Source of the DNA: Candidatus Saccharibacteria bacterium oral taxon 488
GTDB lineage: Bacteria > Patescibacteriota > Saccharimonadia > Saccharimonadales > Saccharimonadaceae
Direction: 5' to 3'
NCBI GenBank assembly: GCA_010202845.1
Contig: CP047921.1
Span: 270,001-302,000 of the forward strand
Length of the DNA: 32,000 bases
In this document: in pieces, positions 7,760 through 26,945 of the stretch
Layout: each line of letters starts with the position of its first letter
Numbering within the stretch: the first letter of the stretch is position 1
The notes under the pieces: model-generated
What the model saw: only the letters and a program-made list of their open reading frames with translations
Database searches by the model: none
Told to the model about the DNA's origin: nothing
Made by a program: the position numbers and the translations under genes

Positions 7760-10354
7760 TTACTTCTTTGAGCGCCTGCTTTTTCTCGGGGATTTGGATG
7801 ATTTGGCCGAGGCGCGGCCGCGGCGAGCTGGTTTCGCGGGTGCGGCTTTTAGGAGTTCCAAGGCCTGCTCGTGAGTGATGGTTTTTGGGTCGGTGTCTTT
7901 GGGGATTTTGGCGTTTTTCGTGCCGTCGGTGATATATGGGCCGAAGCGGCCGTTGAGGACTTTGACGCCATCGCCAAAGTCAGCGATATTTTTCTCGGCC
8001 TCGGCTTGGAGTTTGGCGGTGTAGAGCTCGCGGGCTTTTTCTAGGGTGATGGTGTGCGGATCTTCAGGCTTGATAGAGACGAAAAGCTTGCCGACTTGGA
8101 TGTACGGGCCGAAGCGGCCGATGTTGGCTTTGATGTCTTGCCCGTCTTCGGTTTGACCAACGACGTGCGGCAATTTGAACATTTCTAGCGCCTGCTCCAG
8201 AGTGACGGTCTCAATTTTCGCGCCTTTTGGTAGCGGTGCAAAGCGCGGTTTGTCCTCGTCGTTAGTGGCGCCCAGCTGCAACATTGGGCCAAAACGGCCA
8301 AAGCGCGCCAGGATTGGCTTGCCAGATTTTGGATCGATGCCGACTTCACGGTTAGCGCCAACTTTACTGCGGTCGATGCCGCCTGACTGTTCGATTAATT
8401 TGTGAAATGGCGTGTAAAATCCGTTGAGCATGGCGCTTTTAGCCAGCTCGGCGGCGGCGATTTTATCAAATTCAGTTTCGACATTGGCGGTGAAATCATA
8501 GTCAACGATTTGCGTGAAATGGTCGGTCAAAAAGTCAGCGATCAGTTCCCCGCTCGGCGTTGGGATGAGTTTACCGCGAGTGGAGCCGGTTTTTTCTTGG
8601 ACGACGTCGCGGCTGACTTCTTCGCCGTTATAATTCAAGACGATGACGTCGCGCGGGCTCCCTTCGCTGTCGCCTTTTTCGACGTAGCCGCGGGTCTGCA
8701 CGGTGTCGATGATGGTGGCGTAGGTGCTTGGCCGGCCAATACCGAGATCTTCGAGTTTCTTAACCAGTGAACCTTCGGTATAGCGGGCTGGCGGTCGGGC
8801 GAAGATTTGGCGGGCGGTGATGTCGTGGGTTTTAAGTGTGTCGCCGGTGTGGAGTTTTGGTAAGAGTTCATCTTTGCCGCCGCCGTAGACGCGTAGGAAG
8901 CCGTCAAAGGTGATGACTTCGCCTTTGGCTTCGAAGTGTAAGTCTGCAGTAGCCGCCTCTCGGACACCATCAGCAAAGTCAGCATCACCAGCGCCACGCT
9001 CCCGCACTGGAGTACTCTTTTCGCTTGTATCTCCACTGGAGATACTACGCGAGCGTTCGGCTGAAACGTTCGCTTCTCGCGAACGTTTCACAGCCTCCAG
9101 CGCAGAAGGTGCCGCTGTTGCTGGCGCATCTGGCGCGAGCGGCGTCTCGGAAAAAATCTGGGATTGTCTCGGGTCCCGGATTGTTTTATGAGACGTCTGA
9201 GTGCCGTCGATAGCAATTACCACCGTGGTCTTCTCTAATTTTGCTGCCGACATTTGCGATGCTAGGGTGCGGCGGCGAATGAGGTCGTAGAGTTTCTGGT
9301 CGTACTCGTTGGAGGTGACGGTTTCGCGGGTAATGTCGGTCGGGCGGATGGCTTCGTGGGCTTCTTGGGCGGAGGCGGATTTGGTTTTGAATTTGCGCAC
9401 AGTCGAATAATCCGGGCCGTACAACCGCTTGATAAAGTCGGTGGCGCTAGCGATGGCCTGCCCGCTCAAATTGACCGAGTCGGTACGCATGTAGGTGATT
9501 TTACCGTCTTGGTACAGCCGCTGGGCTGAGGCCATGGTAGCTTTGGAGCTGAAACCAAGCTTGGCGTTGGCCTCCTGTTGCAGAGTTGACGTCGTAAACG
9601 GCGCGGCTGGGTTGCGGGTGCCAGGCGTCTTTGAGATGTCGCTGACGGTGAACGTGGCTGGCTTGAGGCTGTTCAAGAATTCGTGAGCAGCTGCTTCGGA
9701 ATCAAATTTTTGATTGAGCTCGGCTTTGAATTCTTGATTGTCGTGGATGAATATGGCGGTCACCTTGAACTGCGAGCTGCCTTCAAATTTCATGATTTCT
9801 CGTTCGCGTTCGACCAGTAATCGCACCGCTGGGCTCTGGACGCGGCCAGCCGACTTGCCTCCCGGCACTTTTTGCCAGACTACGGGGCTGAGCTCAAAAC
9901 CAACCAATCGGTCGAGAATTTGCCGTGCCTGCTGCGCTTGCACCAGGTTCATGTCGACGGTGCGCGGGTTTTTGATGGCATTGGTGATAGCATCTTTGGT
10001 AATCTCGTGAAAGACGATGCGTTTGGTCGTCTCAATCGGCAAATCCAATACTTTACAGAGGTGCCAGGCAATGGCCTCCCCTTCGCGGTCTTCATCGGTG
10101 GCCAGCCAGACATTGTCTTTGCCAACAGCCTTGACATTTTTCTTCAGCTCGCTGATGACTTTCTTTTTCTCTGGGTCAACTTCGTAGATAGCAAAAAAAT
10201 CATTCGCCACATCAATTGGCGGCGTGCCATCTTTGGTTTTTTTGACAATTGAGCGGATGTGTCCCACGCTTGACAGGACATGAAAATCCTTGCCTAAGTA
10301 TTTCTCAATGGTTTTAGCTTTGGCTGGTGACTCGACGATGACGAGATTTTTCAT
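7760..10354 (-). CDS. topA: DNA topoisomerase I (type IA) with a zinc-finger-less C-terminal repeat domain and an ~87-codon internal insertion
   Basis: Toprim N-terminus MKNLVIVESPAKAKTIEKYLGKDFHVLSSVGHIRS, and the active-site region ITYMRTDS. Three C-terminal GRFGP repeats (FGRFGPMLQLG, IGRFGPYIQVG, NGRFGPYITDG) and a Lys-rich tail. TATAAT lies 8 nt upstream of the ATG (leaderless-type). Confidence 0.95.
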   Translation of the reverse strand: MKNLVIVESPAKAKTIEKYLGKDFHVLSSVGHIRSIVKKTKDGTPPIDVANDFFAIYEVDPEKKKVISELKKNVKAVGKDNVWLATDEDREGEAIAWHLCKVLDLPIETTKRIVFHEITKDAITNAIKNPRTVDMNLVQAQQARQILDRLVGFELSPVVWQKVPGGKSAGRVQSPAVRLLVEREREIMKFEGSSQFKVTAIFIHDNQEFKAELNQKFDSEAAAHEFLNSLKPATFTVSDISKTPGTRNPAAPFTTSTLQQEANAKLGFSSKATMASAQRLYQDGKITYMRTDSVNLSGQAIASATDFIKRLYGPDYSTVRKFKTKSASAQEAHEAIRPTDITRETVTSNEYDQKLYDLIRRRTLASQMSAAKLEKTTVVIAIDGTQTSHKTIRDPRQSQIFSETPLAPDAPATAAPSALEAVKRSREANVSAERSRSISSGDTSEKSTPVRERGAGDADFADGVREAATADLHFEAKGEVITFDGFLRVYGGGKDELLPKLHTGDTLKTHDITARQIFARPPARYTEGSLVKKLEDLGIGRPSTYATIIDTVQTRGYVEKGDSEGSPRDVIVLNYNGEEVSRDVVQEKTGSTRGKLIPTPSGELIADFLTDHFTQIVDYDFTANVETEFDKIAAAELAKSAMLNGFYTPFHKLIEQSGGIDRSKVGANREVGIDPKSGKPILARFGRFGPMLQLGATNDEDKPRFAPLPKGAKIETVTLEQALEMFKLPHVVGQTEDGQDIKANIGRFGPYIQVGKLFVSIKPEDPHTITLEKARELYTAKLQAEAEKNIADFGDGVKVLNGRFGPYITDGTKNAKIPKDTDPKTITHEQALELLKAAPAKPARRGRASAKSSKSPRKSRRSKK
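9136..9190 (-). repeat. Copy C of a 55-nt imperfectly palindromic repeat, in frame inside topA
   Basis: The reverse complement cataaaacaatccgggacccgagacaatcccagattttttccgagacgccgctcg matches 22834-22888 at 48 of 55 positions (hand alignment). The internal inverted repeat cgtctc...gagacg spans 9143-9195. Confidence 0.85.
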
Positions 10355-12545: not shown

Positions 12546-13529
12546 ATGACGCAGATAATTGAGCACGATACCTTAGTCAAGTTAAGCCAAGAGCGCCCGT
12601 TGGTGTTTCGAGCCCAAGCGGCCGCCGTCTTGGCGCGCGTGCCGCGACGATTTCGACGAGATGCGCGGATGCTGAATCGTAGCAAGCGCACGATGCACGA
12701 TATGCTGACGGCGTGGCGGGACGAATGGTTGCCGAGGCTAGAGACGATCACCTCGGCGCATAATGCGACAACGTTGCAACAAGCCTTGCAGGAGGATTTG
12801 CTGGCCGAGACGTCGTCGCAGCAACGGCTGATCGCCATGATGATACCGGTGCGGCTTGAGGAGGAGCGACTGGCCTTTGCGGGGTCGCAGTTTACGTCAA
12901 AGCGAGAGAAAAAGCCGTATCAGCGAACGCTGGCGTTCGCCCAGCAGCCAATTGAGGTCTGTCGACAGCAGGTTGAAGATTTTATGAGGTACGAACTGTA
13001 CCGGGCGGTGCTCGGTGAGGTCGGTGTGACCGTGGTGGACAAGCAGGCGCGGCCTTTGGTGCGGTGCTGGCAGCGGCTACGGGCCGGTCGTCAGGTTAAG
13101 AAACTGCGACGTGAGGTAACGAGGCGCTTGGCGGCGATTGAGCGAGAAATGACGGCGATTGAGCAGGAGCGCGGCGGCTTGGCGGCCCGGCTGTTCGGGC
13201 TGAATATTGATTATGTGACGGTGTTGGCAGCGCGACAGGAGTACGAAAAGGCGCTGGGCCGGCTGAGTAAAAAAGCGGCCGAGAGCCCGGCCAAGCGGCT
13301 GGCACTATACGAGAAAAAGACCGAAGCGATTCGCGAGGAATACCTCGACACAGTACCGGGCGTGGCGAATTTGTCAGAAGCGCAGCGGGCGGTCAAGGAA
13401 ATTGATTCGGTGCTGCTCGCGATTTTTGACCTAGACGCGACCGCGCGCAACGAACTGATGAGCGCGTTTAAGCGCTACCGGACGCTGACGCGTGAGCGCG
13501 ACATGCTACGGGCAAAGCTTGAGGTGTAG
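12546..13529 (+). CDS. Hypothetical Arg-rich, predominantly helical/coiled-coil protein
   Basis: 327-aa ORF with consistent coding look. It is GC-richer than its neighbours (about 62 percent by hand count on one 60-nt line). No motif recognised. Confidence 0.65.
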   Translation: MTQIIEHDTLVKLSQERPLVFRAQAAAVLARVPRRFRRDARMLNRSKRTMHDMLTAWRDEWLPRLETITSAHNATTLQQALQEDLLAETSSQQRLIAMMIPVRLEEERLAFAGSQFTSKREKKPYQRTLAFAQQPIEVCRQQVEDFMRYELYRAVLGEVGVTVVDKQARPLVRCWQRLRAGRQVKKLRREVTRRLAAIEREMTAIEQERGGLAARLFGLNIDYVTVLAARQEYEKALGRLSKKAAESPAKRLALYEKKTEAIREEYLDTVPGVANLSEAQRAVKEIDSVLLAIFDLDATARNELMSAFKRYRTLTRERDMLRAKLEV

Positions 13530-14051: not shown

Positions 14052-14088
14052 TGTAGCACTTATTGCGACAAAATTGCAATAAGCTACA
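14052..14088. promoter_or_regulatory. 37-bp imperfect palindrome (candidate operator) overlapping both divergent promoters
   Basis: TGTAGCacTTATTGCGACAAAATTGCAATAAGCTACA. The outer arms TGTAGC/GCTACA and the inner ATTGCGACA...TTGCAAT are symmetric. It covers the TTGCAA -35 elements of both the fur promoter (minus strand) and the 14111 promoter (plus strand). Confidence 0.55.
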
Positions 14089-14881: not shown

Positions 14882-14902
14882 GCGTGAGAGCGTTGAAAAC
14901 TA

Positions 14903-14921
14903 ATTGAGACATTGTCGCAAT
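14903..14921. repeat. Copy of the 19-bp palindrome ATTGCGACA-N-TGTCGCAAT
   Basis: ATTGaGACATTGTCGCAAT, in the 52-nt gap between convergent stops (14881 plus, 14934 minus). Confidence 0.7.
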
Positions 14922-14933
14922 AATGATACATAG

Positions 14934-17911: not shown

Positions 17912-17951
17912 TTAGTATTTGGATTTTTATTTTTGGGCGGGAGCGTTTACT

Positions 17952-17970
17952 ATTGCGACATTGTTGCAAT
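17952..17970. repeat. Copy of the 19-bp palindrome ATTGCGACA-N-TGTCGCAAT
   Basis: ATTGCGACATTGTtGCAAT, in the convergent gap between stops 17911 (+) and 18021 (-). The flanks cTATTGCGACA....TGCAATAAGC closely match the operator copy at 14060-14083. Confidence 0.7.
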
Positions 17971-18020
17971 AAGCATTTTTGATTTCGCAGGCGCAATGGT
18001 GTAGTGATGTGCCGGGGGGG

Positions 18021-19792: not shown

Positions 19793-20068
19793 TTAGACAG
19801 GGTATGGACCTATTGGGATATTTCTGTCTGTTCCGTATGCTTTACGGTATGCCTCCTCAATCCACGCTGGGTCAGAGTCGTGGTGGACTCTTATGGTGTA
19901 CCCGTTGAACTTGAAGGTGACGAGCACCTTCTCCTTTACTGCTGCGGTCCAGCCATTGGACCGCTCCAGCCGCTCAGCCAACTGGATGGCCATCCATGCC
20001 GCATCAAGAACAAGCGTTCTTGATTTGACGATGAGTTCAACTGCTACGATACAGTAGTCGTCTGTCAT
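19793..20068 (-). CDS. Hypothetical small protein; shares a short domain with the 20535-21563 product
   Basis: The ATG at 20068 (MTDDYCIV) is preceded by GGAGGAAG. The segment RVHHDSDPAWIEEAYRKAYG resembles PVYENSDPEKLEAAWARVMRG in the neighbouring protein. Confidence 0.55.
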   Translation of the reverse strand: MTDDYCIVAVELIVKSRTLVLDAAWMAIQLAERLERSNGWTAAVKEKVLVTFKFNGYTIRVHHDSDPAWIEEAYRKAYGTDRNIPIGPYPV

Positions 20069-20450
20069 AATGTTCTTCCTCCCCACCCGAGCGGATGCTC
20101 ATGTGAAAAACACTGGTCGACACTCGGATGGGTCGACTCGAGATGGGGTGTTTTGGTGCTTCTTATGATACACCACGACATCCCACCTCAAATCGAAACT
20201 TTCTCTGCTTGTCAAACTACACTTTCGGACAAGGATGTACTCAACTCGTCAACAAAAGCTGATATATATATATCACTAATAGAACAAAATGTCAATGGAT
20301 TTTGTCAAAAATGTGGTGTAATATTTTTTCTCACCCCTGTTATGATCATAGATAACTTTTTATAGAAAATAGTAGCCGGTGCTTTCTGATAACAGTAACT
20401 TGGCGCAGCATGATAAGAACGGGTCGGAATGTTGGTATTTCAAGAACATC

Positions 20451-20486
20451 AAAACGCCGACAGGTACATAAGCGCGTCGGCGTTTT
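20451..20486. terminator. Intrinsic terminator hairpin (usable on both strands) downstream of the 20535 stop
   Basis: 11-bp stem AAAACGCCGAC / GTCGGCGTTTT with a 14-nt loop. T-runs follow on both strands. Confidence 0.65.
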
Positions 20487-20534
20487 GTTAGGATTTTTAT
20501 AGCCTAGAAACACTTGATATCAAGCGTACAATTG

Positions 20535-21563
20535 TTACTGGGCTTCAGGCGGAAGAGGTGAGCGGTATCCACTTTGTCGCTCGCGTACTTCGTTATACCA
20601 TCCTAATAGCTCTTGACCATGATCCCAGCCCCACGCTGAGTCTGGCAATAAATAACCAGTTACTGCATTAAACAATGGATCTGAGGTATTTACCCTGATA
20701 TCCAATATTCTTAGGGCCTCTCCGGCAATATCTGCTACGGTTGCAGTCTCGTTATTGTTGAGATGATCTTGCATGAGCTTTGCCAATAGGAATGTGTAAG
20801 AGCTGTACATGACTCCTCTTGCCTCAAACTCACTCGTAAATGGCTCTGCTTGTATTGGGTTATCTCTGTCGCCATAGATATTAGGTGGTAGCTGCGCCGC
20901 CGCTGCTCCAGCAAGGCGTATTTCTACGTCCCAGAGTTTTTCTTTTAGCCCCTCATATTTTTCTTGTCTGTTGATAATGATATCTGCCCGCTGAATATCA
21001 TAATCGTCTTCATCGTTGCGCCGAGCTTCATCTTCCCGCGCCTCAGCGGCAAGGACTTTTTCTGGTATATCGTCCAGAGTTTTTATCACGAGTGGATATG
21101 TCTCTGCCATTACAGGATGCTCGCTATACGGATCAGGAACTTTTATCTGCTGATCACAGTGTCCGCGCATAACTCGCGCCCAAGCTGCCTCTAGTTTTTC
21201 GGGATCAGAATTTTCATATACGGGAACACAAACACCACCGAAAATAAGTAGCACCGGCTGGCCTTCTTCTGGTGCTTCTGGGCCGTTACTGATAGCATAT
21301 TTGGCTATATCTACTGCATCAGAGAAAAATATTCTGGCATCAGCAAGGTCGTCGCCCAGCGCAAGTAATGGAGCTTTTTCTAGTGGCCCATGATACATTT
21401 CAGGCTCGCTAGGCTCGAGGGTGACTTCGGCAGGAGTTTCTGGGTCTTCCTGAACTTCTTCCTTGATACCCGCAGGATTTTCCTGAAGCGTGTCCCAGCG
21501 GGTTGCAGCATTATTTTGCCCTTCGCTCGGCATTCCCTCAGGTGGCTTTGGTATTCCTGTCAT
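20535..21563 (-). CDS. Hypothetical acidic protein
   Basis: Long ORF. AAAGGAG lies 8 nt upstream of the ATG at 21563 (alternative ATG at 21569; the ORF-track start at 21581 is a GTG inside the SD region). No motif recognised. Confidence 0.6.
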   Translation of the reverse strand: MTGIPKPPEGMPSEGQNNAATRWDTLQENPAGIKEEVQEDPETPAEVTLEPSEPEMYHGPLEKAPLLALGDDLADARIFFSDAVDIAKYAISNGPEAPEEGQPVLLIFGGVCVPVYENSDPEKLEAAWARVMRGHCDQQIKVPDPYSEHPVMAETYPLVIKTLDDIPEKVLAAEAREDEARRNDEDDYDIQRADIIINRQEKYEGLKEKLWDVEIRLAGAAAAQLPPNIYGDRDNPIQAEPFTSEFEARGVMYSSYTFLLAKLMQDHLNNNETATVADIAGEALRILDIRVNTSDPLFNAVTGYLLPDSAWGWDHGQELLGWYNEVRERQSGYRSPLPPEAQ

Positions 21564-21601
21564 AGTCATAACTCCTTTCACATGGATTTTAGTGTGCTGA
21601 G

Positions 21602-21630
21602 ATTATATCAGCAGTGTAGCACTATGTCAA
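21602..21630 (-). promoter_or_regulatory. Perfect consensus promoter for the 21563 CDS
   Basis: The minus strand reads TTGACA (21630-21625), a 17-nt spacer, then TATAAT (21607-21602). Confidence 0.65.
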
Positions 21631-21676
21631 GGTTATGGGAACTCAGCTCCAGTTATTAATACGCCGTTGAGTTGGT

Positions 21677-23305
21677 TCACTTCTTGTCAAGAACAACCAA
21701 GTGCTCACTATGCGGCGTGCGCGGGAAAAAGTTGTAGCCGCGGTGATGGACGATGCGGTAGTGCTGCTGGAGCAAGGCGACATCGCGAGCTTGGGTGACG
21801 GGGTTGCAGCTGAGATAGAGGATGCGCGGCGGTAGCTGTTGCAACAATGTCGCAATAACGTCAGGATGTAAGCCAGCGCGCGGCGGATCAACGATGACGA
21901 TTTCCTTGCCTGTAATGTGGTCGAGGGCTTGTTCGCTGGGGGCGAGGACAGCGCGAGCGTCGGTGCGGTCAAGTTCGGTGATGTTGCGCTGCATTTCGCG
22001 GACAGCGTCGGTGTTGATTTCCACCAGCGTGACGTTGCCGCCGCCAATGGTCAGACCAATAGTGCCGACGCCAGCATAGAGGTCGAGGGCTGGCTCGCCC
22101 GTCTCGCAAACATCTTTTTCTTCAGGCCGGCGCGCCGCTAACTGATCTAGCTGGCGCTCTTGGCGCGCCTTTGCCGGAAAGGCAAAGCCTTCAGAAAAAG
22201 AGTTTGACGAGTCGTGCTGCTTGCTTTCTCTATGTTGCCCAGATTTTTTCTGAGATATTACTCGCTGTTGACTATCAATGTCGCCATGTGCCGCCAACTG
22301 AGCCCGGCGCTCTTGGCGCGCCTTATTGTACGGCATCCACTCCTTCATATCGCGCAGCGCCTGCTCGTAAACCGGGATGTTGACTTGGAAAAAGCCTTCG
22401 CAGGCGTAGCGGAATGGTATGCCAAGGATAGCGTCAGTCAAGGTGGTGTTACCGAAAAGCGCCAAGCGCTCGGTGATGCGGCTGGCTGGCGAGCGCGGGT
22501 CGGAATAGATAATTTCCCCGCCCTGAGCTGGTAGCTTGGCGGCTTCAGTAGCGGTAATTATTTCGGGCAAGCGATCTTTAACATACAACTGCCATACGCA
22601 ACTTCCCGATTGATCGCAGCGGACGAGCAAGGTCTTGAGCTGGCGAGCCGCGACGCGTTTATGGCGCAGCAAATTGCGGATCGCCCGCGCCAGGTTATTG
22701 ATTGCAGGGTGCGCCAAGCTCGTGCCATCGATGACAATCTTGCCTTTGCTGCCGCGGCGAAAAAATGCTAAATCAAGCGTATCGCCAGATGATTCTTCAC
22801 GGTCGCTATCCGCGTCTATATCTTGGTTATTATCAGAAAATAATTCGGGACCCGAGACAAGCCCAGATTTTTTCTGAGATACCGCTCGGGATACCACCGA
22901 TTCGCTGTACCAGCTAAATTCAACTTTGTTGCGATAACCATATGCGACATTGTCGCAATAAATGTCAATCGCCGCCGGTAATGTAACATTGTGCAGTGTA
23001 AAGGCGTCGTCGATCAGTTGCCTTTTGTATATCTGCTCTATCTCGAGCGGCATAATTTGCCAGGGGCTGGTCGACAGGTAACTATCTGGATCGCGCGGCT
23101 GGATGCGGTCGGGGCTTGGCAAAATTACCTCCTCGACAATCGCTTCGACGAAGTGCGATTTCTTTTTAGTAATGCGAACAGTGACCGTCTCGCTGGGCAG
23201 TCCGCCCCATACAAAACATTTGCGGCCGTCGGTCAGCGTCCCTAGTGCTTGCCCGCCGCCAACGACCTTCTCCAGTGTCAGCGTCTCAAAACTCTGTCGT
23301 TTCAT
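21677..23305 (-). CDS. RlmD/RumA/TrmA-family (uracil-5) RNA methyltransferase with an N-terminal TRAM domain and two internal insertions
   Basis: TRAM-like N-terminus (LTLEKVVGGGQALGTLTDGRKCFVWGGLPSETVTVRITKKK). Family motifs GYRNKVEFSW, GFFQVN, LDLYAGVGTIGL, IVDPPRAGL and YLSCNPVTQARD. The ATG at 23305 lies 8 nt downstream of TATAAT (23319-23314). Confidence 0.85.
   Translation of the reverse strand: MKRQSFETLTLEKVVGGGQALGTLTDGRKCFVWGGLPSETVTVRITKKKSHFVEAIVEEVILPSPDRIQPRDPDSYLSTSPWQIMPLEIEQIYKRQLIDDAFTLHNVTLPAAIDIYCDNVAYGYRNKVEFSWYSESVVSRAVSQKKSGLVSGPELFSDNNQDIDADSDREESSGDTLDLAFFRRGSKGKIVIDGTSLAHPAINNLARAIRNLLRHKRVAARQLKTLLVRCDQSGSCVWQLYVKDRLPEIITATEAAKLPAQGGEIIYSDPRSPASRITERLALFGNTTLTDAILGIPFRYACEGFFQVNIPVYEQALRDMKEWMPYNKARQERRAQLAAHGDIDSQQRVISQKKSGQHRESKQHDSSNSFSEGFAFPAKARQERQLDQLAARRPEEKDVCETGEPALDLYAGVGTIGLTIGGGNVTLVEINTDAVREMQRNITELDRTDARAVLAPSEQALDHITGKEIVIVDPPRAGLHPDVIATLLQQLPPRILYLSCNPVTQARDVALLQQHYRIVHHRGYNFFPRTPHSEHLVVLDKK
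21838..21856. repeat. Intragenic copy of the 19-bp palindrome
   Basis: gTTGCaACAATGTCGCAAT, inside the methyltransferase CDS (encodes DVIATLLQQ). Confidence 0.6.
22153..22324. repeat. 153-bp in-frame unit bounded by perfect 19-nt direct repeats inside the methyltransferase CDS
   Basis: GGCGCTCTTGGCGCGCCTT occurs at 22153-22171 and 22306-22324, spaced 153 nt (51 codons) apart. At the protein level this gives the duplicated KARQER. Confidence 0.8.
22191..22257 (+). repeat. Copy B (variant) of the palindromic repeat
   Basis: Terminal inverted repeat TCAGAAAAA (22191-22199) / TTTTTCTGA (22245-22253). The 21-mer gcccagattttttctgagata (22237-22257) is identical to 22861-22881. Confidence 0.75.
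22833..22888 (+). repeat. Copy A of the 55-nt palindromic repeat, in frame inside the methyltransferase CDS
   Basis: tcagaaaataattcgggacccgagacaagcccagattttttctgagataccgctcg. It has the inverted repeat TCAGAAAA / TTTTCTGA and an inner CGGGaCCCG palindrome. It matches the reverse complement of 9136-9190 at 48 of 55 positions. Confidence 0.85.
22941..22959. repeat. Intragenic copy of the 19-bp palindrome
   Basis: taTGCGACATTGTCGCAAT, with a perfect 15-bp palindromic core TGCGACATTGTCGCA. It encodes IYCDNVAY, immediately before the conserved GYRNK motif. Confidence 0.65.
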
Positions 23306-23324
23306 CAAGAGTTATTATAACAGA

Positions 23325-23798
23325 TTAGAAATTACACTCTGGCACGCCGCCAAACCAGCCGTTCTGCATATTGCGGCCAGTGCGGCAGGTGGTGCCATCT
23401 GAGAGCAGCACCTTTATGGCGTAGCGGGTCGGTACGACGCTGGAAGCGTGGGTCGTGTCAGTGGCTGCGAGATACCAATAATCGCGGCCTTCGTGGTCTT
23501 TCGGCAGCTGCTTGATGTAGCGTGGAATGAGAAGTGCGCCGAGCTCACCACCATTACAAATCTTCATATTAGCGGTGTTATAAATGGTGCAGGCGCTCGT
23601 CGGCCATGGATATTCGCCGTTGTCCGAACGATATTTCTCGATCGCCTCTTTGAGCATTGAAATATTTGACTTGGTTTCGTTGTCGCGAGCGGTGTTGTAG
23701 GCATTGCGCCAGACGAGGCCGCCCAAGGTAGCGAGGATCGCGATAACCACGATAATGATGATAACCTCAACGATAGTAAAGCCATACTGCTTATGCAT
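23325..23798 (-). CDS. Type IV pilin-like protein (prepilin with an N-terminal methylation motif)
   Basis: MHKQYG/FTIVEVIIIIVVIAILATL is a class III signal peptide (G-F-T-x-x-E). Start set at 23798, 6 nt downstream of TACAAT. The longer ORF-track version (to 23963) would run antisense through tRNA-Gln. Confidence 0.8.
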   Translation of the reverse strand: MHKQYGFTIVEVIIIIVVIAILATLGGLVWRNAYNTARDNETKSNISMLKEAIEKYRSDNGEYPWPTSACTIYNTANMKICNGGELGALLIPRYIKQLPKDHEGRDYWYLAATDTTHASSVVPTRYAIKVLLSDGTTCRTGRNMQNGWFGGVPECNF

Positions 23799-23877
23799 AT
23801 GACGATTGTAGCGCGTTTTGAGCCCGATCGCAAGGCTGGTAATTGCGTAATTGTTATGATACACTAATCCTTGGTAT

Positions 23878-23952
23878 TGGGCCGTCGCCAAGTGGTAAGG
23901 CACCAGGTTTTGGTCCTGGCATTCGGGGGTTCGAATCCCTCCGGCCCAGCCA
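23878..23952 (+). tRNA. tRNA-Gln (anticodon UUG), CCA encoded
   Basis: Hand-folded cloverleaf. Acceptor stem UGGGCCG/CGGCCCA (U1-A72, as in bacterial tRNA-Gln). D arm GCCAAGUGGUAAGGC. Anticodon stem CCAGG/CCUGG with loop UUUUGGU. T arm GGGGGUUCGAAUCCCUC. Discriminator G followed by CCA. Confidence 0.9.
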
Positions 23953-24040
23953 AGCAAAGACACGTAATTATTCTAAATCTCCTCCGGCTTCCGGTTCAAT
24001 CGACGCCGTGCATTATTACGCCGGCTACCACGGGTCGTTC

Positions 24041-24442
24041 CTATATATAAAACTGATCTATATTGGCCGACAGTGTCGAGTCAAGCTCAACCTGCCCCAG
24101 CTCATCGGCCCCAATATACCGCAGCTCGCTGACATCTGTCGTGGTTGTGGGTGGTGACACGGGGCGAACTTGATAGGCGATGATAAGCACCGGGGTGTTG
24201 AACTTTTTGCTCCATGTCGGGATGATGATTGGCGCTGCGCTTGCAATTTCTATCTCAGCGCCCAGCTCTTCTCGGCACTCACGCCGCAAGGCCTCGGCTA
24301 TGCCCTCGCCGTGTTCCAGCCCGCCGCCGGGTAAATCCCATGTATCGCTCCTCTCGCGGACGAATAGTAACTTTCCGTCCTCATAGATCAGTCCCTTGAC
24401 TGACACGCGATAGGCGGCTCGGATATGTTTGAGCTCAGGCAT
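24041..24442 (-). CDS. Nudix hydrolase
   Basis: Nudix box GGGLEHGEGIAEALRRECREELG. The ATG at 24442 lies 6 nt after AGGAGGA and overlaps the upstream ATPase stop by 8 nt (ATGCCTGA). Confidence 0.85.
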   Translation of the reverse strand: MPELKHIRAAYRVSVKGLIYEDGKLLFVRERSDTWDLPGGGLEHGEGIAEALRRECREELGAEIEIASAAPIIIPTWSKKFNTPVLIIAYQVRPVSPPTTTTDVSELRYIGADELGQVELDSTLSANIDQFYI

Positions 24443-26945
24443 GGTCATTCCTCCTGCTTCGCCATTTGTGTATCTCGCAGGTGGTGATCGGGATAATGAA
24501 TGAGGCGAGGCCGATGAGTGCGCCGTGCCAGAAGTTGATCGGCGTGATGTGGAGGATTGTGCCAAGCGGGCCGAAGAAGACGAGTAGCTGTAACATGACC
24601 GACAGGCCGATGCCAGCGTAAAAACTGGCGTTCATAACCTTGAGGCGAGTGAAGATTGACTCACTGTCAGAGCGGGCGTTAAAGGCGTTGGCCCACTGGC
24701 TGACCACCAGCGAGATAAAGGCCAGTGTTTGCGCGTAGTCGTGGCCATAATGCTTCTCGAAAAAGATATAGACCGCCAGCGCCATGACTGACATGGTGGC
24801 GGCGACGATGACCATCCGCCAGATCATTTGACGGCTGAGAATCGGTGCGTCGGGGCGTTCCGGCGGACGGTTCATGGCCTGCTTTTCGCCTGGCTCCAGG
24901 CCAAGCGGAATGACCATCGAGGTATCGGTCACCAGATTGACCCAGAGGATTTGCACTGGCTCCAGCGGCGTCTTGATGCCGATGAGCAGCGCGCCGAGCA
25001 TGGTGATCAGCTCGCCGGTGTTAGTCGACAGTAGATAAAACAGCATGCGGCGAATGTTGGCGATGATGGTGCGGCCCTCGCGCATGGCGTCGATGATGGT
25101 CTTGAAATTATCGTTGAGCAGGATAATATCGCCAGCGTCTTTGGCGATGTGCGAGCCCGACCCCATGGCCACGCCGACATGGGCGTTGGTCAGTGCCGGT
25201 ACGTCGTTGACGCCGTCGCCGGTCATGGCGGTGATGTGGTGCTTTTTGAGAATGGTCAGTAGGCGGTATTTTTGCTCGGGGATGACGCGAGAGAAGACCT
25301 TGGTTTTGGTGACGATGGCGTCCAGCTGATCATCGGACAGCTTGGTCATATCACGGCAGTCAAACACCTCATCGCGGCTCTCGACCATGCCAAGCTCTCG
25401 GCCAATCTGATAGGCCGTCTCGAAGTGATCGCCAGTGATCATCCGTACCGACACGCCCGCTTTCAGAGCAGCGCGGATGGCCCGCGGCGCCTCTGGTCGC
25501 AGCACGTCAGCCACGGCCACGAAGCCAGCAAGTGTCAGGCGCTGCTTGCCCAGTTGATCAAAGCTATCAATTGCCTCGTCCAGTTCGCCCGTCGCCAGCC
25601 CAATTACTCGGTAGCCGCGGGCGGTCATCTCATCAAGCATTTGCTGGGCGCGCTTTTTGGTGCGGGCCGACACGCGACAGGCCGCCAGGATGGCTTCGGG
25701 CGCACCCTTGACGTACAAGCGGAACTGCCGGCCGTGATGCCAGATGGCGGCGGACATGGCGTGGGCTTGACTGAATGGCAGGTCGCGAACTGGTGCGTGG
25801 CGCGGGCTGGCGCTCTGCTTGCGGGCGTATTCATTGAGGGCGATATCCAGCGGATCGTGGCTCTTGGCGTGAGCGCGGTTGACCACCAGCCCGATGATGC
25901 GGTCGATGTTCTCTGTCGCCTCGTCCGGCGTCCAAGTTTGCTGAACGGTCAGCTTGTTCTTGGTCAGCGTGCCCGTCTTGTCGGTGGCGATGGTGGTGAT
26001 GACGCCGATGGTCTCGATGGCGCGCATCTGATGTACTAGCGCCTTTTTAGCGGCCATCCGCCGCATTCCTAAGACTAACACCACGGAAATCGCAATCGGC
26101 AAGCTCTCCGGCACGGCACTTACCGCTAGGGCCATGACGAAGCGCAGGCTCTCCAGCACATCAATGCCGCGCAGCAAACTCAGCCCAAAGGCAACGAGGG
26201 CGATGGCCGAGACGGCGGCGATGACTTTGGTGATGAGGGTGTCGATTTTTCGCTGGACTGGGCTTTGGGTTGATTCACGCTTGGAGAGCATGGCGAGATT
26301 GCCGAACTCGGTCTGATTGCCTGTGGCGACGACCACGCCGGTGCCGGTGCCGCTGACGACGAATGAGCCTTGAAACAGCATGTTGGTTTGCTCGTACATT
26401 TCTTTGGTGCCGGTGAGGGCGTCGGTTTGTTTGGAGATTGGCAGTGATTCGCCGGTCAGTTGCGCCTCGTCCACCCGCAAGTTGGCGCTACGAATGAGGC
26501 GGATGTCGGCGGGAACTTTCTCGCCCTCAGCCAGCGAGACGACGTCGCCCGGAACTAGCTGGCTGGCGTCGATGCGCGTGGTACGATTGACTCGGTGGAC
26601 GTCGACTTTTTGGGCGTCGTGACGGGACAGGCTGCGTAGCACACGGTCAGTTGAGAAGCGCTGAATGTAGAAAATAACGGCCGAGATGGCGGCGATGACA
26701 AAGATGATGATGGCGTCAATGGCCTCGCCGTGCCAGAGGCTGATGATGGCGGCGATGAGCAGGACGAGCATAAAAATGTCGAGGAATGGCTCGAGAATGA
26801 TGCGCCAGAGCGGTTCGGATTGGATTTTGATGATGTTGAGGCCATAGCGTTTTTGGCGGCGCTGGACTTCGGCCGCGCTCAGGCCGCCATCCGAGGAACT
26901 AAGTCGCCGCAGCGCCTCGTCGCTTGATGATTGATAAAAATGCAT
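24435..26945 (-). CDS. Cation-transporting P-type ATPase (P2-type, Ca2+/Mg2+-like)
   Basis: Motifs TGES, DKTGTLT, MITGDH and TGDGVNDVPAL, with about 10 TM segments. Start moved to the ATG at 26945 (MHFYQSSSDEALRRL), 6 nt downstream of TATAAT (26957-26952). Confidence 0.9.
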   Translation of the reverse strand: MHFYQSSSDEALRRLSSSDGGLSAAEVQRRQKRYGLNIIKIQSEPLWRIILEPFLDIFMLVLLIAAIISLWHGEAIDAIIIFVIAAISAVIFYIQRFSTDRVLRSLSRHDAQKVDVHRVNRTTRIDASQLVPGDVVSLAEGEKVPADIRLIRSANLRVDEAQLTGESLPISKQTDALTGTKEMYEQTNMLFQGSFVVSGTGTGVVVATGNQTEFGNLAMLSKRESTQSPVQRKIDTLITKVIAAVSAIALVAFGLSLLRGIDVLESLRFVMALAVSAVPESLPIAISVVLVLGMRRMAAKKALVHQMRAIETIGVITTIATDKTGTLTKNKLTVQQTWTPDEATENIDRIIGLVVNRAHAKSHDPLDIALNEYARKQSASPRHAPVRDLPFSQAHAMSAAIWHHGRQFRLYVKGAPEAILAACRVSARTKKRAQQMLDEMTARGYRVIGLATGELDEAIDSFDQLGKQRLTLAGFVAVADVLRPEAPRAIRAALKAGVSVRMITGDHFETAYQIGRELGMVESRDEVFDCRDMTKLSDDQLDAIVTKTKVFSRVIPEQKYRLLTILKKHHITAMTGDGVNDVPALTNAHVGVAMGSGSHIAKDAGDIILLNDNFKTIIDAMREGRTIIANIRRMLFYLLSTNTGELITMLGALLIGIKTPLEPVQILWVNLVTDTSMVIPLGLEPGEKQAMNRPPERPDAPILSRQMIWRMVIVAATMSVMALAVYIFFEKHYGHDYAQTLAFISLVVSQWANAFNARSDSESIFTRLKVMNASFYAGIGLSVMLQLLVFFGPLGTILHITPINFWHGALIGLASFIIPITTCEIHKWRSRRNDHA

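Follow-up and report, generated by a model that had tools for sequence, protein, structure and literature searches.

A direct repeat in the hypervariable linker of a Saccharibacteria rRNA methyltransferase gene is probably a by-product of recombination around a protein-coding palindromic element

The stretch analyzed here (the window) comprises 32,000 nucleotides (nt) of Candidatus Saccharibacteria bacterium oral taxon 488 and contains, on the reverse strand, a gene for a RumA/RlmCD-type 23S rRNA (uracil-5) methyltransferase of 543 amino acids (aa), within which a perfect 19-nt sequence is directly repeated. The protein has the Pfam domains tRNA_U5-meth_tr and TRAM, and it matches solved structures (RlmCD, RumA, and TrmA in the PDB) over three separate stretches. 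It exceeds the typical length for the family by ~100–120 aa because it contains two in-frame inserts, and the positions of both correspond to gaps between the aligned blocks of solved and of distant homologues. An AlphaFold2 model based on a 17-sequence alignment had a mean predicted local distance difference test (pLDDT) score of 38.5 and was unusable for placing the inserts. The repeat lies in the linker that connects the central and catalytic domains, between the conserved motifs FFQVN and LDLYAGVG, where the protein contains ..PYNKARQERRAQLAAHGDIDSQQRVISQKKSGQHRESKQHDSSNSFSEGFAFPAKARQERQLDQLAARRPEEKD.. and the order of translation is PYN-KARQERRAQLAAH-GDIDSQQRVISQKKSGQHRESKQHDSSNSFSEGFAFPA-KARQERQLDQLAAR-RPEEKDVCETGEPA-LDLYAGVG. 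The same points are ~15 residues apart in RlmCD and 89 residues apart in the window protein, and homologues at 42–58% identity (417–441 aa) have 5–6 residues at the linker position; the whole ~78-aa linker stretch is therefore lineage specific. This agrees with the original prediction, made from the sequence of the window, that the repeat bounds an in-frame insertion where relatives have a short linker. The other insert (insert A, at site A) holds a near-intact copy of a palindromic element (element copy A; nhmmer match at 22811–22902, reverse strand). It is missing from alleles of 509 aa and from an allele of 549 aa, and no duplication flanks the filled site.

The 19-mer, which on the forward strand reads GGCGCTCTTGGCGCGCCTT, occurs twice within the methyltransferase open reading frame (ORF) with a spacing of 153 nt, or 51 codons, as predicted. 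Allowing up to 3 mismatches revealed no further match elsewhere in the window; the chance expectation was 0.02, and none of 100 shuffles (0/100) reached two or more matches. We refer to the repeated sequence as segment A, to its copies as A_L and A_R, and to the sequence between them as interval B (Table 1). The alignment of alleles showed a longer, imperfect repeat of 35–38 nt with the 19 nt as its perfect core. Its copies are distinguished by a one-codon indel and a few substitutions: past the core, A_L has CGGGCT where A_R has CAGCTAGAT, and it is one codon shorter. The peptide encoded by segment A is KARQER..QLAA (written AAGGCGCGCCAAGAGCGCCAGCTAGATCAGTTAGCGGC in the allele series described below), and KARQERQLDQLAA with the adjoining RRPEEKDVCETGEP constitutes the 27-aa insert that is left in the "empty" 492-aa allele.

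Interval B was predicted to contain a copy of a dispersed repeat, and this is the case: related sequences occur in the genes for TopA, Dus, and an ABC-F-like ATPase. The copy is not complete, however, as nhmmer aligned only the left arm (model positions 9–45). The hairpin that had been predicted in the interval exists but lies one base away from where it had been placed, and the 9-nt inverted repeat attributed to this copy is located at TCAGAAAAA (22191–22199) and TTTTTCTGA (22245–22253), the copy itself being the left arm alone. Interval B folds no better than shuffled sequence (z = +0.27) and is therefore a degenerate element. Tandem Repeats Finder (TRF) detected no tandem array at the site, either in the window or in a two-unit allele (L003, see below), and an Rfam search of positions 20000–24500 gave no match at the linker site.

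Table 1. Coordinates in the window of the methyltransferase gene, the linker repeat, and the palindromic element copies
Feature	Position	Strand	Basis
Host gene, 543-aa RumA/RlmCD-type 23S rRNA (uracil-5) methyltransferase	21677..23308	-	ORF, Pfam, PDB
Direct repeat A_L (gene-proximal), perfect 19-nt core AAGGCGCGCCAAGAGCGCC, encodes KARQER	22306..22324	-	
Direct repeat A_R (gene-distal), perfect 19-nt core	22153..22171	-	
A_L, full extent, 35 nt, KARQERRAQLAA	22290..22324	-	Allele alignment
A_R, full extent, 38 nt, KARQERQLDQLAA, then RRPEEKDVCETGEP	22134..22171	-	Allele alignment
Interval B, 134 nt: flank HGDIDSQQRVI, left element arm, rearranged middle, right end FSEGFAFPA	22172..22305	-	
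Element copy B, retained left arm; 18-mer TCTCAGAAAAAATCTGGG at 22238–22255	22236..22272	-	nhmmer, E = 1.3e-7
Hairpin CTTTGCC-GGAAA-GGCAAAG at the B/A_R junction	22169..22187	.	Present in every long-type allele
Insert A (SVVSRAVSQKKSGLVSGPELFSDNNQDIDADSDREES), 111 nt where the empty allele has 9 nt, net +34 aa	22790..22900	-	Allele comparison
Element copy C, intact palindrome, in frame in topA (7760–10354, -), reads SHKTIRDPRQSQIFSETPLAP	9120..9215	+	DNA fold, z = -3.8
TopA composite in-frame insert, 93 aa (279 nt)	8936..9214	-	Comparison with L026

The family to which copy B belongs has as its consensus a palindrome of ~68 nt, CGAGcggtaTCTCAGAAAAAATCTGGG-loop-GGGTCCCGgATTaTTTTcTGAnGATanCCgAG, and is represented in the window by three copies (element copies A, B, and C). 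We surveyed one genome per species with the 18-mer TCTCRGAAAAAATCTGGG, an approach in which copy counts are lower bounds. Matches were in strong excess in oral Candidatus Saccharibacteria, and chance matches were scattered across many phyla; the same 18-mer had two matches in viral contigs, and the one examined was a chance match. The Saccharibacteria loci and the window together contain at least 66 copies at at least five sites in at least four genes, which encode the methyltransferase (two sites, A and the linker site, B), TopA, the ABC-F-like ATPase, and Dus. Stop-free stretches of 226–867 codons enclose all of the listed copies (66/66), and further, diverged copies are likewise enclosed. 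The element can be read on either strand, as SRAVSQKKSG(LVSGP/LALAGP/QLHVGP)GLFSDD.R (the "same" mode) or as ARASHKTIRDP(RQS/HEVA/LKPA)QIFSE.PLAP (the "opposite" mode), and the two peptides are unrelated. Because the independent sites are few (five) and coding density is high in small genomes, the observation that the element is never intergenic carries little statistical weight; the informative point about the family, as judged from the sequences, is its identity at the DNA level across unrelated genes and both strands. As DNA, intact copies fold into long hairpins (z = -3.8 for topA and -4.5 for site B of L005, with 0 of 200 shuffles as stable). Orthologues differ in whether the element is present: site A is empty in the 509-aa and 549-aa alleles, site B is element-free in the 492-aa alleles, and distant homologues lack both.

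The central loop of the element occurs in 3–4 discrete variants (CTTGTCTCGGGT, ATTGTCTCGGGT, CTGGCTTTAGCGGGT, and CAACTTCACGTGGGT) across loci. The same variants recur at different genes, a given site can have different variants in different species, and in the locus L111 a rare variant is common to both methyltransferase copies. This distribution suggests gene conversion among element copies.

We compared the linker among the best 120 homologous protein clusters, all of them from Saccharibacteria, 78–91% identical to the query and 492–549 aa long. Linker lengths were counted from FFQVN to LDLYAG, and the DNA of representative loci (L numbers) was aligned. No part of the protein varies more than the linker (46–137 aa), the remainder being 83–93% identical. 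About 75 of the 120 clusters have segment A on the right side only (B-A, 82–83 aa, with SHNRSDN or GRDYSD as the left flank), and about 15 have a variant termed B′ (86 aa). The A-B-A arrangement of the window (97–98 aa) is found in about 11, an empty linker (46 aa) in 11, a short intact element (67 aa) in 5, and two units (137 aa) in 1. Ten clusters other than that of the window, derived from independent assemblies, share the A-B-A architecture with the sequence drift that would be expected, and chance is excluded by the match statistics given above; the probability that the repeat is fortuitous, or an assembly artefact (a case allowed for in the original prediction), is negligible. The perfect run within A-B-A is 19 nt in the window (period 153), 13 nt in L007, and 38 nt in L008 (period 156), where A_L matches A_R perfectly over the 38 nt.

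Other alleles contain the same parts in different arrangements. L004 has A to the right of the element only. Six loci (L005, L021, L040, L111, L113, and L115) have A on the left followed by an intact short palindrome, without the right A or RRPEEKD; L061 and L047 have the intact palindrome without any A; and L009, L022, and nine others have an intact palindrome in the opposite orientation, also without A. Over the element, the L022 sequence aligns to that of L005 as its reverse complement (score 93, compared with 26 in the forward direction). The B′ allele L006 follows L022 exactly for its left 64 nt, as far as the arm CAGAAAA, and departs from it thereafter. L003 has two tandem units (B′-A′-B-A) with a period of 153 and 20–21-nt identical blocks in common, while L001/P0098 (492 aa, from TM7 oral taxon 346, with 36 contigs in the homologue search) is missing exactly 51 codons, and the one A that it keeps is bordered on the left as A_L is and on the right as A_R is. 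The number of unit copies is therefore 0 in L001, about 1.1–1.25 in the window, L007, and L008, and 2 in L003, with a period of 153–156 nt. The possibility had been raised that relatives carry the duplication as a fixed, diverged tandem feature unrelated to the repeat core; a tandem-like feature does exist, including the two-unit allele of period 153, but it is neither fixed nor unrelated to the core.

When the alleles are considered as halves, the left half either has or lacks A, and the right half is either short and intact or long and rearranged with A. All four combinations (4/4) exist, with identical flanks, and the allele alignments place the linker junctions in the element arms. A neighbour-joining tree of the middle part of the gene is at odds with that of the C-terminal part, and the linker types are scattered over both; the alleles nearest to the window are of A-B-A type for the N-terminal part, empty for the middle part, and of short type for the C-terminal part. 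We conclude that A-B-A is probably a duplication made by recombination within a hypervariable, mosaic, in-frame linker insert, and not by transposition. The suggestion in the original prediction that the repeat is a recombination-junction duplication comes close to this interpretation.

We propose that a ~68-bp protein-coding palindromic repeat seeded the linker insertion complex, and that alleles came to differ in whether the element lies to the left or to the right of A. The left half of the window would derive from an allele with A followed by an intact element (L005-like), and the right half from an allele with a rearranged element followed by A (L004-like). Joining of the halves inside the common element arm would generate both A-less and doubly-A alleles, so that the duplication would be a by-product of unequal or patchwise homologous recombination. 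A crossover between two A copies would then cause the unit to be lost (the 492-aa allele) or gained (the two-unit L003), and the insert would be neutral and tolerated rather than adaptive. Repeat-mediated loss of the unit, which had been predicted as precise excision, is plausible: the one-copy 492-aa allele, without exactly 153 nt, is what a deletion would leave, although the direction of the change is unproven.

The original prediction also raised a target-site duplication. In that case B would have inserted into the "empty" sequence YN-A-RRPEEKD, and a staggered-cut transposase or gap repair would have copied 19–38 nt of the target. A-B-A and the exact one-copy "empty" allele do resemble filled and empty sites, and the duplication in L008 is a clean 38 nt. 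However, none of the 65 other element copies listed, at four other sites, is flanked by a direct repeat longer than 9 nt, and the flanking repeats of 9 nt or less are inconsistent between copies. At site A, 9 nt are swapped for 111 nt and no duplication is left. The ends of B, a degenerate element, differ from the palindrome ends, in most alleles the same B is accompanied by A on just one side, and the length of the perfect run depends on the allele (13, 19, or 38 nt, or none). To our knowledge, 19–38 nt is far above the duplication lengths of known bacterial transposases. Because flanking repeats are lacking elsewhere, the repeat varies in length, A is often one-sided, and the ends do not coincide, we do not interpret the 153-nt repeat as a target-site duplication, an origin that we regard as improbable. 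Segment A was not found elsewhere in the loci or by blastn of ~0.5 Mb of Saccharibacteria DNA. A metagenome scan with segment A (GGCGCGCCAAGAGCGCC) gave six true matches among those listed, all in the methyltransferase linker, and the rest were chance matches in GC-rich soil contigs. Because segment A was found only in the methyltransferase linker, the 19-nt repeat is an intragenic duplication.

Such a duplication could have been purely intrachromosomal, with slippage or unequal sister-chromatid exchange acting on (B+A), followed by partial deletion and without exchange between alleles. This is what the two units of L003 resemble, with their identical blocks, and copy numbers of 0, 1, and 2 are observed with a period that is a multiple of 3. 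The A-B-A alleles nevertheless contain only 1.12–1.25 units, and what stands to the left of A_L is not a truncated B but PYN, the gene's normal flank. Moreover, the two halves of the window match separate allele classes, and the reciprocal combination, which lacks A, is seen as well; exchange is pervasive in the trees, and TRF found no array. We therefore consider an origin within a single chromosome to be unlikely. It is very doubtful that the DNA repeat is incidental to a selected feature of the protein, such as a duplicated K/R/Q/E-rich helix that binds RNA or serves as a spacer. Both A copies are predicted to be helices in an AlphaFold2 model that is otherwise poor, and the reading frame is open in every allele, but the model is unusable at its mean pLDDT, the linker is the part most variable in length and sequence, and the segment is missing from distant homologues, from many Saccharibacteria alleles, and from the solved enzymes.

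Several observations weigh against the favored interpretation, that recombination made the duplication and can remove it. The empty alleles all cluster closely in a single clade (mutual identity of at least 99%, ~93.5% identity to the window outside the linker), and therefore the loss or gain has been seen once, between lineages, and not as ongoing heterogeneity. This clade has no near-isogenic filled partner among the best 120 clusters, and the 492-aa allele could predate the element insertions instead of being a deletion product. The C-terminal part of the window groups with short-type alleles, so that a single crossover is insufficient and a conversion patch is needed. For L003, the two-unit allele, there is only one metagenomic contig, 2.3 kb long; a chimeric assembly is made less likely by the middle A copy, which is a variant seen nowhere else. 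Finally, the favored interpretation does not account for where segment A, RRPEEKDVCETG, and the rearranged middle of B came from; when the 81-nt insert of the "empty" allele and the middle of B were searched by blastn in ~0.5 Mb of Saccharibacteria DNA, they turned up in no other context.

The element family appears to be recombinogenic beyond the linker unit. Both orientations occur at the same site in the methyltransferase (site B) and in Dus, and the TopA insert is inverted between species. In Dus, the element lies at one position (after GRGVFSDPFCF) in opposite orientations in L019 and L042 versus L052 and L062, which results in two different peptide inserts in different species. In topA, element copy C runs opposite to the coding strand, and ~190 of the 279 nt of the composite insert (the element and a second palindrome) are reverse-complemented in L026, from another species; the alignment score between the two inserts is 137 reversed versus 31 forward, and the reading frame is open in both orientations. 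The second palindrome, which adjoins the element in topA (9050–9097), has GAAACGTTCGC at 9064–9074 and GCGAACGTTTC at 9079–9089. A related peptide, ..RERSAET..RERF.., is present in the ABC-F insert (L014) and in the inverted TopA insert (L026), and the second palindrome may possibly represent a second in-frame repeat family.

A further idea is that the palindrome is an active coding cassette system, in which the arms are portable sites for inversion and unequal recombination that diversify protein surface loops, perhaps with the help of natural transformation or a dedicated recombinase. If this were so, the RlmCD-like methyltransferase, TopA, Dus, and ABC-F would switch in-frame peptides (SQKKSG..LFSDD versus HQKIIRDP..QIFSE, and 0, 1, or 2 units), and the diversification would be programmed or selected, beyond tolerated junk. 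We give this idea little credence.

The best-known precedent for palindromic repeats that code for protein within essential-type genes, such as these oral Saccharibacteria appear to carry, is provided by the Rickettsia palindromic elements (RPEs), which are repeats of ~150 bp that sit in frame within genes unrelated to one another (Ogata et al., 2000, Science 290:347; 2002, Genome Res 12:808; both as summarized in PMC10969869) and of which R. conorii has 44 insertions (PMC10969869). As far as RPEs are described in that source, the Saccharibacteria element resembles them in being a short dispersed palindrome in the reduced genome of a host-dependent bacterium, in lying in frame in unrelated housekeeping genes without breaking the ORF, in its presence/absence polymorphism in orthologues, and in having no known transposase. 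It is about half as long (~68 bp versus ~150 bp), it is found at at least five sites in at least four genes as against the 44 insertions in R. conorii, and it occurs in either orientation at the same site, with arms that act as recombination junctions. It also belongs to a different phylum (Saccharibacteria/Patescibacteria), and the likeness is one of properties, the consensus not being known to be related. Bacterial MITEs, which are miniature inverted-repeat transposable elements (e.g., ERIC; PMC10969869), resemble it in that they are small, end in inverted repeats, can form hairpins, occur in multiple copies, and are occasionally found in frame within genes. In contrast to MITEs, the Saccharibacteria element lacks a constant target-site duplication, and its listed copies are all genic and in frame; no cognate insertion sequence or transposase was identified for it, in genomes that were not scanned in full for one.

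The 153-nt unit, as far as the alleles allow it to be judged, behaves like a low-copy coding tandem repeat of the kind known as variable-number tandem repeats or minisatellites. Like them, it has a period divisible by 3 (153–156 nt) and comes in alleles with 0, 1, or 2 units, and recombination or slippage between copies would account for gain and loss. It differs from such repeats in having only 1.1–2 copies, with units that are 65–70% alike and missed by TRF, and in being built on a dispersed palindrome, so that the alleles are mosaics of element orientations. Quasipalindrome template switching and inverted-repeat-mediated inversion are known from E. coli and phage mutagenesis. The Saccharibacteria element shows a similar pattern, in that imperfect palindromes appear to flip or convert in situ with junctions within the arms, a pattern seen here by strain comparison only.

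The window contains further features of note. A 21-nt palindromic motif, TATTGCGACAWWRTTGCAATA, has 8 matches at up to 3 mismatches, compared with 0 expected. Its sites (12761–12781, 14061–14081, 14902–14922, 17951–17971, and 21837–21857, with a variant at 22943–22961) are partly intergenic and partly within the methyltransferase gene, and the motif might serve as an operator, as an uptake signal, or as a site resembling a terminator. Between genes downstream of the methyltransferase, positions 20074–20152 on the reverse strand match the Rfam RNA RAGATH-10 (55.9 bits; gathering score 41.2). A tRNA gene at 23878–23949 on the forward strand (Rfam, 61.8 bits) overlaps the 5′ extension of ORF 23325..23963 on the reverse strand, the product of which is type IV pilin-like; this ORF probably has its true start further downstream.

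We found no description of coding palindromic elements in Saccharibacteria in the full-text open-access literature of PubMed Central and bioRxiv, where the "insertions" reported for the Candidate Phyla Radiation are insertions in rRNA genes, and the in-frame palindrome family appears to be undescribed. The 19-nt repeat itself is mechanistically ordinary: recombination would have made it, and recombination could remove it. If the family is confirmed on closed genomes, in-frame "selfish" palindromes would have arisen independently in reduced, host-dependent genomes, and they would act as intragenic hotspots of recombination and inversion. The resulting strain-level length polymorphisms could then serve as typing markers for TM7 lineages. 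For annotation, the odd linkers and length differences of these proteins should be read as the products of events at the DNA level.

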